Assembly: GCA_028819235.1 (NCBI GenBank)
Contig: JAPPMC010000129.1
Span: forward strand, 28 to 64,027
Reading direction: 5' to 3'
DNA: 64,000 bases
Origin: Bryobacterales bacterium
GTDB lineage: Bacteria; Acidobacteriota; Terriglobia; Bryobacterales; UBA6623
A program made the position numbers and the translations under genes. The notes under the pieces were generated by a model, which saw only the letters and a list, made by a program, of their open reading frames with translations, was not told the DNA's origin and ran no database searches. Shown here one piece after another: positions 40,050 to 43,208 of the stretch (its first letter is position 1; each line of letters opens with the position of its first letter).

Positions 40050-42893
40050 ATGGCAAGCACCGAGACGCTTCCGCGCATCACCTCGTTTCAGCCGGACTAT
40101 CCCTCAGCGGCTCACGTGACGGGGAGGCGCGGCGCAGACCGTCGTCTGCGCCTGCACCAGCAGGTCCTTGAGGAGATCGGCGAGCGCCCGCGAATCAGCA
40201 AGCGTCTCTCGATTGTGGTCCAGCAGATGGCTGCACTGGGCAGAAGCACTATCGTCAAGGGCTGCAGTGGCCATGCCAACAGGGGGTGGCGCAGGACACC
40301 CCTCGGTGGACATCACGGCATGCACTACTACCTGTGGTGGTCTCCCCAGGGCACTCGGCAGACCCGCAAGTTTGCGAGCCTAGAGAGGGATTCGATCCTG
40401 CTTCGCGCTGTCCGGCATCACGACGACCACCGGCCACTCAATGTCGGCAGGCTGATGGACTACCACACGCTGGAATGGCAGGATCTTGACGGCGACTCTG
40501 CCAGCTGCTTCCAGCCTCCTTGGACAGACGTTCAGGAACTGTTTGCCTTGGAGGACAGACCCGTGCGAATGGTGTATGGGTATCCCGGGTCGGGAAAGAC
40601 GGTGGCCCTGTGGAAAGCTGTCGAGGCTCGCACCGCGGGCAGGACCATATACCTGTCGTGGTCGCCAGCTCTCATCCGGCAGGCGCGGGCCAGATTTTCT
40701 GCGTTCGCTCCTCCCGGTGCGGCTGTCGATGCCCGGGACTTCAGCACATTCCTCGGCGAGCTTTGCGGCACTGATGTGCGACGCCAGTCGCTCACAGCCA
40801 GCCGAGCGGAGTTCAAGCATGCATTTGAGTGGTGGAAGATCAGCGACCACTTGGGGCCGTGGAAGAAGCGGATGGACGCCTTGCATGCCGAACTGCGTGC
40901 GGTCCTGTTCGGATGCGCCGTCCCGGGAATGTTCAACTGCTCAGCCAACGGGTTTCGGCTCAGCGACGAGGCGTACTTGTCGGCCGGCGCCAGTTCTGTG
41001 GGGCGCGACGCCGGGGTGCAGGTGCTGGAATCGATCCGCCGTGCGGGCTGGAGGACATGGTACGACCATGTCTTTCCCGAGATCGCGGCAGCCAAGACTG
41101 CGATGGAGCGACTGCGCAGAGGCTTTCTGCCAGACGGGCTGGTCGATTTTGACCGCATCGTCGTAGACGAGCTTCAGGACCTGACTTTGCTCGAATCGGC
41201 GGTCATCGCCGAGTACTGCCGAGCCTTGGCGGCCAAGAGGGGCCGCGCGCCGTGGCTGTTGATGGCCTTCGACGACGGCCAGACAGTCCGACCGTCCGGA
41301 TTCCATGCGGGCCGGCTCAATTCGTTGCTTCACGATTGGCTGACGGTTCCTGAGGAGTTCAATCTCGAGCGCAACGTGCGCAGTCCCGGGGCGATCGCGG
41401 GGGTCGTTGAACGCGCATCCATCCTTTACACCGTGATCCGAAAGCGATCGCGGCCGGTCGATCAGCGCCGGCAGTTGGCGGATCGTGACGGCGCAGCTCG
41501 CGTCGACTCGAGGATCATCTACACGGAGCTCGACGACAGGACTCAGGCGCAACGGCTGCTGGTCAGACTCGGCGAGGTCGATGACGTGGCGGTAGTCACC
41601 CCCGAAGGCGTCGTGCCCGACTGGGTGCCGAAGGAGTCTCGCGACGCGATCCTAACTCCTGAGGATGCTAAAGGACTCGAATACGCGTCAGTTTGCGTCC
41701 TTGATCTGGCCCCAGTTCTCAAGGCACTGCGGCGGAGCGTGGACGAGCAGGACCCGCTGGAAATCCATCAGCGGCGGACCGCCATTGACCGCCTGCGCGT
41801 GGCTCTGAGCCGTGCGACCGAAAACTTGATTCTGGTTGACGTAGCACCCGACGACCTTGGGCGAGAGCTCTGCTTGCAGCTGCTGGGCTCTGCGGAACGA
41901 TTTACCGCCAGCGACCTGCTCGAGCTCTTCGATGACGCCGATGCTCCCCCAGACGAGAGGGTCTATACGCGCACCGGCGACGCCAAGGCGTTGATGGAAG
42001 TCAACCTGCGGCGTGCCTGGCAGAGGGCGCTGCAGGCGCTCCGGCTTCTCGGCGGGACGCGGGACAGCGTCCTCGTCGACGACGAGGCGGTCCAATCCGA
42101 AGTTTGTCTCACCGTGCTGGCCGTTGCCGCCCGGAGGCTGACCGAGGACGAACTGGAGGCCGAGCAGCGTAACGACATCGGTGAGACCGCACGTAAGGTG
42201 GCGGTGAAATGGGGGAACTCGAGACAGGCAACCGCAGTGAGAGAACTGGTCTCGTGGACACGAGAACCCGCCGATTCCCCTCTGGACCTGCTTGAGTGCG
42301 GGCTGGAGTTGGGCGAGCCGGACCGGGCATGGTTCGAGGATGCACTGGCACCGGTCCACCAAGCTCTGCGGAAAGCCCTTCGGCGCAGCGCGGCCGACCC
42401 TAGTTTCGCACCTCGGATAGCCCGCAAGATCGACGGCTGCTTGAGGCTTGCAGGCGTGATGGGCGAGGTGGGCAAGGAGGTCGAGCGCCTCCGAGGGATC
42501 GCAGCGGAGGCGCTCGCGAGAGAAGCCAAGTTTCCAGCCGCGAGCAAGATGCTGTCGCTCGTCAAGGAACCTGACCCGAGAACGGTCGGGATGATTGCGG
42601 AGGGCCTCGGCCGGTACGCGCAGGCTGCCACAGCATTTGAAGACGCGGCCCTGCGCGAGGCCGCGCTTCGCAATTGGCGCTTGGCGGGGAACTTCGAGAA
42701 AGCGTTAAGCCTGGCCGATGGCCAGACAAAGGAGGACCTGCAGTGGCTAATTGCTACGGAAAAGCATATGAGCGTGCGGCCGTTTGAGTTGCAGGAGCGG
42801 ATCTCGCCGTCAGAGCGATCGCGGCTCACCAAGGCAACGCGCATGCCGGCGAGGACCAAACCTGTCCAGAAAGGTGCCAAGCCCCGCAGATGA
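40050..42893 (+). CDS. SF1 (UvrD-like) helicase/ATPase with N-terminal RelE/ParE-like domain and C-terminal TPR-like helical region
   Basis: Walker A GYPGSGKT, Walker B IVVDELQD, motif III DDGQTVR, IV LERNVRS, V AKGLEY, VI RVALSRA. N-terminal GWRRTPL..YYLWW...ILLRAVRHHDD. Confidence 0.8.
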   Translation: MASTETLPRITSFQPDYPSAAHVTGRRGADRRLRLHQQVLEEIGERPRISKRLSIVVQQMAALGRSTIVKGCSGHANRGWRRTPLGGHHGMHYYLWWSPQGTRQTRKFASLERDSILLRAVRHHDDHRPLNVGRLMDYHTLEWQDLDGDSASCFQPPWTDVQELFALEDRPVRMVYGYPGSGKTVALWKAVEARTAGRTIYLSWSPALIRQARARFSAFAPPGAAVDARDFSTFLGELCGTDVRRQSLTASRAEFKHAFEWWKISDHLGPWKKRMDALHAELRAVLFGCAVPGMFNCSANGFRLSDEAYLSAGASSVGRDAGVQVLESIRRAGWRTWYDHVFPEIAAAKTAMERLRRGFLPDGLVDFDRIVVDELQDLTLLESAVIAEYCRALAAKRGRAPWLLMAFDDGQTVRPSGFHAGRLNSLLHDWLTVPEEFNLERNVRSPGAIAGVVERASILYTVIRKRSRPVDQRRQLADRDGAARVDSRIIYTELDDRTQAQRLLVRLGEVDDVAVVTPEGVVPDWVPKESRDAILTPEDAKGLEYASVCVLDLAPVLKALRRSVDEQDPLEIHQRRTAIDRLRVALSRATENLILVDVAPDDLGRELCLQLLGSAERFTASDLLELFDDADAPPDERVYTRTGDAKALMEVNLRRAWQRALQALRLLGGTRDSVLVDDEAVQSEVCLTVLAVAARRLTEDELEAEQRNDIGETARKVAVKWGNSRQATAVRELVSWTREPADSPLDLLECGLELGEPDRAWFEDALAPVHQALRKALRRSAADPSFAPRIARKIDGCLRLAGVMGEVGKEVERLRGIAAEALAREAKFPAASKMLSLVKEPDPRTVGMIAEGLGRYAQAATAFEDAALREAALRNWRLAGNFEKALSLADGQTKEDLQWLIATEKHMSVRPFELQERISPSERSRLTKATRMPARTKPVQKGAKPRR

Positions 42894-42917
42894 ACTGGGT
42901 GATTGCATCACGACGGG

Positions 42918-43208
42918 ATGGTGGAGATGCCGAGAGGAAAGAATAGGTCCTACCGTCAAATGCGGATAGAGGATTTCATCGATTCCAAGTCTGAGGTGCA
43001 CAGTTGGCGAAAGCAAGGGCGTTTCGAGAGAGCACTGCGGCTGGCCGAAGGCCGGGCCAAGGCTGACTTGCAGTGGATGATCGAGACCGAATCGCTCATG
43101 AAGCGCCGTCCGGTCGGTATTCAGGATCGCCTAACGAATGCTGAAAGAAAAAGGCTTGGCAAGGCGATGCGTCTGCCGCGCCCGAGAAAGAAGCCCCGCT
43201 TCGACTGA
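42918..43208 (+). CDS. Small basic protein paralogous to the C-terminal 58 aa of the upstream helicase
   Basis: 31/58 ungapped identity with the region encoded at 42675-42848. Start could be ATG 42918, 42927 or 42960. Confidence 0.75.
   Translation: MVEMPRGKNRSYRQMRIEDFIDSKSEVHSWRKQGRFERALRLAEGRAKADLQWMIETESLMKRRPVGIQDRLTNAERKRLGKAMRLPRPRKKPRFD

Follow-up and report, generated by a model that had tools for sequence, protein, structure and literature searches.

A lineage-restricted small gene derived from the C-terminal cap module of the adjacent helicase in a Bryobacterales genome

What is the origin of a small open reading frame (ORF) that directly follows a large helicase gene in a soil bacterium, and does its product work together with the helicase? 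This question is raised by a locus in the genome of Bryobacterales bacterium (assembly GCA_028819235.1, contig JAPPMC010000129.1, positions 28 to 64,027 of the forward strand); this whole stretch of 64,000 nucleotides (nt) is herein referred to as the window. Gene 1, the helicase gene, occupies positions 40050–42893 of the plus strand and encodes 947 amino acids (aa) from the ATG at 40050, as in its database copy P0003; an alternative start, TTG at 40044, gives 949 aa (ORF 40044–42893, plus strand). Gene 2, the small ORF, is located at 42927–43208 of the plus strand and encodes 93 aa from the ATG at 42927, as in the database copy P0123, or 101 aa from a TTG at 42903 (ORF 42903–43208, plus strand). 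A preliminary description of this DNA proposed the pair as a new two-gene system. What can be said most safely is that gene 2, a small gene conserved within a restricted lineage, arose by tandem duplication of the cap module of the helicase. The whole explanation, namely a conserved gene born from this duplication whose product works with the helicase as a detachable second cap, seems to us slightly better than an even bet.

The duplicated segment is the C-terminal cap module of the helicase (residues 865–933, positions 42636–42842, plus strand). Its core at 42675–42848 aligns without gaps to the 58-codon module core of the small ORF at 43005–43178 (plus strand), with 31 of the 58 residues identical. 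This identity and the peptides quoted in the preliminary description were reproduced by translation, as was its estimate that about half of the identical residues use different codons (14 of 31; nucleotide identity, 107/174). When the second peptide was shuffled 20,000 times, the number of identities never exceeded 14. Comparison of the whole proteins by BLASTP gave 36 identical residues of 77 (E 2e-19; helicase residues 865–940 against small-ORF residues 22–98). Thus, the small ORF encodes a paralogue of the cap module that stands alone and ends in a basic tail. The module was not found again elsewhere in the 7.19-Mb genome, and the surroundings of the small ORF showed none of the homology to other helicase parts that the stump of a second helicase copy would be expected to have. 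Of the 22 module columns with 80% or higher conservation across 100 outgroup helicases, the small ORF retains 19 and the helicase's own module 17. Searches with the small protein gave no match in Pfam or NCBIfam, nothing credible in PHROGs and no usable feature match in the Protein Atlas, where all structure rows were below the naming bars.

A separate small ORF was found directly behind the helicase gene, 9–33 nt after its stop codon, in all five loci for which DNA is available and the helicase is at least 64% identical: the window, L007 (88% helicase identity), L005 (87%), L021 (80%, a 3′ fragment) and L006 (64–65%). It is intact next to every one of these close homologues. No separate small ORF was found at six loci with helicases of 48–52% identity (L008–L011, L014, L018), which have the helicase's own module only. 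Within the genus, the module is present in 10 and the separate small ORF in 4 of the 31 genomes. The helicase itself was found in 68 of the 401 genomes of the order, belonging to 28 of 108 genera and nearly always in a single copy (query P0002, E ≤ 1e-3); the small ORF accompanies it in 4. The proposed two-gene system is therefore not a property of the family. Since the helicase stands alone in nearly all relatives, the small gene is a lineage-specific add-on and not an obligatory partner.

Database searches gave the same picture of a narrow distribution. Six small-ORF clusters at 90% identity were found among 5.8 billion proteins. An exhaustive hidden Markov model (HMM) search of 1.84 billion representatives gave three clusters at 50% identity and added the long-form protein P0129 and the divergent P0130. 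The latter is an orthologue with about 50% divergence, in which the layout, length, module signature and tail are kept. A metagenome scan with the small-ORF alignment yielded 600 pattern matches and no relative. Among the 92 HMM matches, 33 are shorter than 200 aa; besides P0124, P0129 and P0130, most of these look like 3′ fragments or frameshifted pieces and were counted neither way. In other clades, 30 further short proteins (67–197 aa; within P0132–P0215) have the module at their C-terminus, and P0148, P0185 and P0203, as well as P0126, begin exactly at the Met of the motif AGMPxDALRNWR. Most of these short proteins look like gene fragments or frameshifted calls; some may be independent modules or internal starts.

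The small ORF exists in a long form of 119–123 aa, colinear with the last ~110 residues of the helicase, and in the short form seen in the window. All length differences among the orthologues are in frame. Selection was estimated as the ratio of non-synonymous to synonymous divergence (dN/dS) by the method of Nei and Gojobori. For the 58-codon core, dN/dS between the window and L007 is 0.115, with 16 synonymous changes at 41 sites against 8 non-synonymous changes at 133 sites (Fisher p 1e-6). For the whole small ORF, the same pair gives 0.27 and other pairs give 0.22–0.45, all well below 1; for comparison, the values are 0.16–0.18 for the whole helicase and 0.16–0.28 for its last 90 codons. 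The ORF remains intact in 5 of 5 loci though synonymous divergence (dS) reaches ~1. Together with the codon differences, the dN/dS range of 0.12–0.45 supports the earlier proposal of an old duplication under selection at the protein level. The small ORF is thus under purifying selection and behaves as a coding gene rather than a stump. The start regions also align, MPRGKNR of the window corresponding to MRADKSK of the long-form orthologues, and a Shine-Dalgarno-like GGAGG precedes the ATG by 6 nt in L007, L005 and L021, i.e., three of the four window-type loci. The aligned ATG and this upstream site suggest separate initiation of the small ORF.

Gene 2 corresponds to the distal of two copies left by an old tandem duplication that covered the last ~110 codons of gene 1. 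In the module tree, the small-ORF modules and the modules of helicases at least 62% identical form one clade (support 100/96), apart from all other helicase modules, which places the duplication within this sub-clade. A quick tree of the helicase cores puts P0017 as sister to the other 15 members (SH-like approximate likelihood ratio test, 97). P0017 has a single module, and its sequence and tail (...GIQDRL...KAMRMPRRQKTLFD) resemble the small ORFs rather than the duplicated helicases. Hence the duplication arose in one sub-clade after the P0017 lineage had split off, P0017 keeping the ancestral tail. In the helicases of the duplicated lineages the ancestral tail has been replaced, by an Arg/Gly-rich extension in one branch and by ...TKPVQKGAKPRR in the branch of the window. 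A locus in G013, another genome of the genus, contains a frameshifted helicase with one module and a tail of the small-ORF type (...QKTLVG).

The reading frames of the two copies differ between lineages. The DNA of the two L006 copies matches at 75% over 205 nt, and their offset of 415 nt puts them out of frame with each other; the copies in the window, with an offset of 330 nt, share one frame. At L007, L005 and L021, a single TGA is followed by an open in-frame stretch. The spacer of the window, TGA ACT GGG TGA (42891–42902, plus strand), places two in-frame stops between the helicase and the small ORF. In the sub-lineage of the window, the corresponding spacer (also L007 6848–6859 and L021 830–841) is composed of TGA and three sense codons, the third of which has turned into the second TGA in the window.

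A relative with both modules in a single chain was also found. P0010 (1061 aa, from one 23-kb ENA contig) has its own module plus a second copy of the long-form type and nests among the split forms in the helicase-core tree. With its residues 860–1061 as a query, no second double-module protein was found among 2634 candidates. P0010 may represent a true re-fusion or an assembly frameshift, so the fused form is suggestive only. The ancestor may have had an in-frame internal repeat that was later split, or else the split form may have been re-fused once.

The large protein is a member of a widespread, unnamed single-gene family. Of 8000 scored candidates, at least 427 were relatives at E ≤ 1e-3; those listed (120) are mostly 940–1140 aa long and almost all unnamed. 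According to the genome records, the close relatives belong to Bryobacterales and other Acidobacteriota, and the remoter ones to Caldilineaceae, Betaproteobacteria and Verrucomicrobia. Pfam and NCBIfam gave only sub-threshold P-loop and tetratricopeptide repeat (TPR) matches, PHROGs a generic DNA helicase (4e-6), and PADLOC only P-loop matches to GajB (E 0.0011) and Cas3d (0.065). In agreement with the preliminary description, no named system was matched in these four libraries. A full-text literature search, judged on titles and abstract openings, found no description of an architecture combining RelE, a superfamily 1 (SF1) helicase and TPR. Helicase copies broken by a frameshift or internal stop were observed at L023 (G013:C171), at L018/L034 (the second copy in G138), and in G220, G304 and G232; such copies fit an accessory, possibly costly gene.

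The AlphaFold2 model of the large protein, based on an alignment with 73 relatives, resolved four parts with a mean predicted local distance difference test (pLDDT) of 86.5 and a predicted template modelling score (pTM) of 0.86. The arrangement of a RelE-like domain, an SF1 helicase and a TPR part, which had been proposed earlier, holds at the level of folds. The N-terminal RelE/ParE-fold domain (residues ~30–130, positions 40131–40433, plus strand) was assigned by fold comparison of a separate model, with a pLDDT of 85.2 when folded alone. In VIA-align, the top 24 rows (Z 7.8–5.5, 74–98 residues aligned) comprise 22 toxins of the RelE, YoeB, YafQ, HigB and ParE types together with the RelE-like parts of Cami1 and Txp40; the following rows have Z of 4.6 or less. 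RelE and YoeB also lead in Foldseek, with probability up to 0.99 and weak E-values (0.05 or higher). No RelE, ParE, YoeB or HigB profile in Pfam or NCBIfam matched the domain at E ≤ 1. Thirteen residues of the domain are invariant in the family: K72, C74, N79, G81, W82, R84, P86, Y96, W98, W99, R121, R124 and H126. R121, R124 and H126, together with the near-invariant H125, are located on the last strand. The invariant set argues for a putative working active site.

The second part is an SF1 (UvrD/PcrA/HelD-like) ATPase-helicase core (residues ~160–620, positions 40521–41903, plus strand), recognized by motifs and by Foldseek. The motifs are Walker A GYPGSGKT at residue 179, DELQD at 375, DDGQT at 410, AKGLEY at 542 and LSRAT at 588, with positions invariant or near-invariant across the 73 relatives. 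Foldseek matches are HelD, UvrD, PcrA, Rep, FBH1 and AdnB (E 9e-9 to 1e-5, probability 1.00). The window protein scores 12–15 bits against the Pfam AAA_19 and UvrD-helicase models, under their gathering cut-offs of 24–33, and its relative P0075 clears the cut-off of AAA_19 (28.3 vs 25.1). By motifs and fold, the SF1 UvrD-like ATPase core is intact.

The third part, a TPR-like helical-repeat arm (residues ~621–864, positions 41904–42635, plus strand), was assigned from the model and the family profile. The arm is all-helical, with block pLDDT mostly 85–97 and dips to 65–75. The family profile matched the TPR regions of the intraflagellar transport proteins IFT144/WDR19 (E 5.5e-5 to 2e-3). Among repeat models, TPR_2 matched the arm at E 0.17, and the relative P0088 matched TPR_ELP1 at 1.3e-5 (26 bits, cut-off 28).

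The cap module comprises the ~60 last ordered residues and is the densest run of invariant or near-invariant positions in the C-terminal arm. R879 and P913 are invariant family-wide; W878, G882, A887, A891, D898, L899, W901, R912, R919, E924 and L928 are near-invariant. In the model it forms helices at 871–881, 884–888, 893–910, 916–919 and 922–932. It is followed by a basic tail that is predicted to be disordered (residues 934–949, positions 42843–42890, plus strand; pLDDT <50), and such tails differ between clades. Some relatives have added C-terminal domains past the cap module, e.g., DUF7662 in P0103 (4.2e-13) and a conserved extension of ~130 residues in a group of 1133–1159-aa proteins; P0116 and P0043–P0058 are also among the bearers of such additions. 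The helicase tail is thus a site of accumulating add-ons.

A short motif was observed at the tails of relatives when the C-termini of P0019–P0041, P0017 and P0127–P0130 were compared. In the clade of ~50% identity, 16 of the 23 helicase clusters have a basic linker and then QxxLF at their C-terminus or close to it (e.g., ...RRQEGLF, ...EQEELFSEG). P0017 and the long-form small ORF P0128 end in QKTLFD, and the other long-form small ORFs end in R/K-x-x-LF-[DG]. QxxLF has been lost from the helicases of the duplicated lineages, and neither window protein contains it, the helicase ending in the tail of its branch given above (42843–42890) and the small ORF in ...RKKPRFD (43179–43205). The general form of the bacterial sliding-clamp-binding motif is given as QL[S/D]LF / QxxLF in PMC12309361. 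If the motif is a true one, the ancestral tail would be linked to the replisome, and in the long-form lineages this link would run via the small protein and not the helicase.

The two genes lie within an insertion of ~7.05 kb (37867–44914) between lysS (36064–37866, minus strand) and a gene for a 474-aa protein (44915–46339, minus strand). The latter is a core gene, present in 30 of 31 genomes of the genus. In G088, G016 and G054, which do not have this helicase, the distance between lysS and the 474-aa gene is ~250–380 bp; in G062, a different insert of 2.8 kb occupies the same spot. This site looks like an integration hot spot. The insertion contains an ORF for 237 aa of no known family, a transposase remnant, the helicase gene, the small ORF and a Uma2 gene. 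The remnant (39033–39524, plus strand) is similar to the C-terminal end of IS4-type (DDE_Tnp_1) transposase-like proteins: its ORF, which has no direct Pfam match of its own, shares 44% identity (E 1e-29) with the C-terminus of an 809-aa ORF in L018. The L018 ORF (8136–10565), located beside another helicase copy, is composed of a DruA-like region (PF14236, 1.3e-16), Tnp_DNA_bind and DDE_Tnp_1; the remnant in the window covers only the last ~160 residues of such a protein. The gene for a Uma2-family putative endonuclease (43329–44198, minus strand; Pfam PF05685, 6.3e-13) is convergent with the small ORF. The accessory context claimed earlier, between an IS4 remnant and a Uma2 nuclease, is thus borne out by the remnant similarity, the Uma2 match and the 7-kb insertion.

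A repeat search of the insertion found no flanking direct or inverted repeats of note. A scan of 39500–43600 for promoters and terminators found no sites on either strand, the method being weak at 63% G+C. At L007, the region 3′ of the small ORF (7500–11135) contains a tandem duplication with two Uma2-like segments, as well as a 90-residue fragment and a fuller copy of the 474-aa gene; this region is structurally unstable. An all-versus-all comparison of ORFs of at least 90 aa from 12 helicase loci found no common neighbour outside close relatives. Besides the small ORF, no neighbour is conserved with the helicase across clades in the loci compared. Pfam searches with 10 flanking ORFs at other loci gave sulfatases, Rho, a nucleoside hydrolase, or no match.

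How could the two products be related? Constant adjacency, the kept signature residues and the fused form indicate that the small protein most likely still works with the helicase. The large protein may be a nucleic-acid-directed enzyme of conflict or maintenance, with its RelE-like domain held in check in cis; its architecture and context would also be compatible with a function in defence. The small protein would share the transcript of the helicase and serve as a second, detachable copy of the C-terminal interaction module. Its most likely docking place would be on the helicase, at or beside the end of the TPR arm, where it could extend or mask the working surface of the cap module or compete for the cap's partner. 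In this way it might tune the large protein as an adaptor or regulator.

Association was also addressed by complex prediction with helicase residues 8–933 and small-protein residues 20–93, each with its own alignment, so that the calibration holds only roughly. The interface score ipSAE (interaction prediction score from aligned errors) was 0.52, 0.57 and 0.55 (median 0.55) against 0.00 in all three controls; scores in this band are rated as wrong in more cases than right, except for pairs that were probable a priori. Agreement of contacts between the runs was at least 100%, and the partner pLDDT was at least 78. In the calibration, the mark was reached by 58 of 80 solved complexes and by 2 of 110 mismatched pairs; scores of 0.60 or less comprise only 7 of the 80 solved complexes and both passing mismatches. 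The prediction therefore lends weak support to binding of the small protein to the helicase. Because the partner is homologous and own alignments were used, it was given little weight.

Several points weigh against a small protein that works with the helicase. The score band of the complex is low, no interface was output, and homology of the partner to a part of the first chain may inflate the score. The arrangement is rare (in the genus, 4 of 31 genomes; in the order, 4 of the 68 genomes with a helicase), so nearly all family members work without it. The short form of the window is the long form minus 27 internal codons, lost in the window's lineage. Three of the four window-type forms no longer end in the LF of the ancestral tail, of which the window retains the F. 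For the small protein alone, the Atlas model has low confidence (pTM 0.21, pLDDT 0.51), and the window has a degenerate version of the GGAGG. The fused form is known from one sequence on one contig and could be an assembly frameshift. Finally, no significantly faster evolution of the helicase's own module than of the small ORF's was found (7 vs 3 unique changes, p 0.2); the trend appears in 93 of 100 outgroups and was dropped as evidence.

Three other explanations were considered. The small ORF could be a decaying by-product, left behind when a segment was duplicated in tandem or a second copy was deleted, functionless and kept open by chance or by hitch-hiking. The rarity of the arrangement, the fact that the window's lineage has lost 27 internal codons and the ancestral tail motif, the one-module locus with a frameshifted helicase in G013, and the poor stand-alone fold all fit such a relic. 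Nevertheless, we consider this rather unlikely: dN/dS of 0.12–0.45 with a significant synonymous excess, in-frame length changes among orthologues and the kept module columns disfavour a neutral relic. The same is true of the ORF being intact in 5 of 5 loci at dS up to ~1, of P0130 with its length, module signature and tail kept at ~50% divergence, and of the conserved start with its Shine-Dalgarno-like site. A functional product could alternatively be added to a fraction of the helicase molecules by stop-codon read-through, giving a two-module isoform like P0010. The naturally fused P0010 is a precedent for such an isoform, and the copies share a frame in the window, L007, L005 and L021, with one TGA (two in the window) and three sense codons between them. 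Two in-frame TGAs 6 nt apart in the window, the different frames of the L006-type copies and the prior of one in three for the sharing of a frame in a single lineage disfavour read-through, and the conserved ATG with its upstream site points to separate initiation, which makes this explanation highly improbable.

The third alternative regards the small protein as an antitoxin or decoy derived from its own target. Here the large protein would be a helicase of the abortive-infection type, in which the cap autoinhibits or senses in cis, and the small protein would mimic the cap in trans, so as to neutralize the RelE-like domain, or else to compete for the trigger or in oligomerization. The RelE/ParE fold with its fully conserved putative active-site set agrees with this view, as do the patchy occurrence of the helicase as an accessory gene in 68 of 401 genomes and 28 of 108 genera, the 7-kb insertion with a transposase remnant and a Uma2 nuclease, and the occasional pseudogenised helicase copies (G013, the second copy in G138, G220 and others). 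The complex prediction (0.55 against 0.00 for the best control, weak support under the same calibration caveats) is also on its side. On the other hand, helicases of 52% identity or less were found without such an ORF in the genomes and loci examined with this query, and without any other conserved neighbour, so a trans antitoxin is not needed for tolerance. No antitoxin or defence model was matched, the neighbours elsewhere are of housekeeping type (sulfatases, Rho, nucleoside hydrolase) rather than defence genes, and contact of the cap module with the RelE-like domain is an assumption. This explanation is thus quite unlikely. Its boldest version, with the cap module as cis brake or sensor of a RelE-helicase-TPR suicide enzyme and the small gene as a trans antitoxin or decoy which, made from the system's own brake, would set the threshold for firing, is likewise hardly probable; in it, the QxxLF of related clades would tie the family to replication forks.

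The helicase with a split-off copy of its tail in a soil bacterium is a lineage-restricted oddity and a natural handle on the function of the tail. The family itself, combining a toxin fold, a motor and a repeat arm in at least 427 clusters that extend to other phyla, is unnamed in every library tested. The cap module exists in three natural states: once (P0017), twice with a separate gene (the window, L007, L006 and similar loci) and twice in one chain (P0010). These states make the binding question of the cap module directly testable with small constructs. If the antitoxin or decoy reading is true, the single, split-duplicated and fused forms are ready-made genetic controls. If the small protein does not modulate the large one, the locus is a tidy gene birth by duplication and fission, with limited wider consequence.

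Among known systems, the N-terminal domain of the window protein has the same fold as the RelE/ParE toxins (RelE, YoeB, YafQ, HigB, ParE) and fused RelE-like domains (Cami1, PDB 8phb). The order of elements is the same (strand, two helices, three-stranded sheet), the alignment covers nearly the whole toxins, and conserved basic and His residues (R121, R124, H125, H126) are found on the last strand. Unlike these toxins, the domain has no family profile match, is fused to a helicase-TPR body of ~800 residues and has no antitoxin-like neighbour. In type II toxin-antitoxin pairs, the product of an adjacent small gene binds and neutralizes the toxin; the window has an adjacent small gene, its predicted binding has weak support, and most family members are without the gene. 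The core shares its fold and the motifs Walker A, DExQD, III, V and VI with the SF1A helicases UvrD, PcrA and Rep and with HelD, which recycles RNA polymerase; identity to these is 11–16%, and the window protein adds the N-terminal RelE-fold domain and the C-terminal TPR arm. Gabija was considered and rejected. GajB (PADLOC PDLC00104), the best PADLOC match, is a UvrD-like defence helicase, and a Gabija AB structure is among the Foldseek matches; however, the match covers only 47 residues of the P-loop (residues 169–215), no GajA or other Gabija model was found on the two window proteins scanned, there is no conserved neighbour, and the architecture is different.

Fused toxin-antitoxin proteins such as CapRel(SJ46) combine an N-terminal toxin fold with a C-terminal autoinhibitory or sensor domain. 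The window helicase is likewise one chain with an N-terminal toxin fold and a putative regulatory C-terminal part, and fused and split forms occur among the relatives. It differs in that the split-off piece is an extra copy, the helicase keeping its own, and inhibition of the N-terminal domain by the cap is an assumption. Stand-alone paralogues of interaction domains that act on their parent protein include the microProteins of plants and animals and CheW, which corresponds to the P5 domain of CheA. In contrast to these, the module of the window is a TPR-like cap and not SH3-like or a zipper, it is found in few genomes, and its binding is a prediction. The likeness lies in the homology of a small protein to a single interaction module of a larger one, which, or whose partners, it would be expected to bind, and, as for CheW and CheA, in the adjacency of the genes. 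If the small protein modulates the large one, the pair would clearly exemplify, in a bacterium, how partial tandem duplication of a target can give rise to its own regulator.

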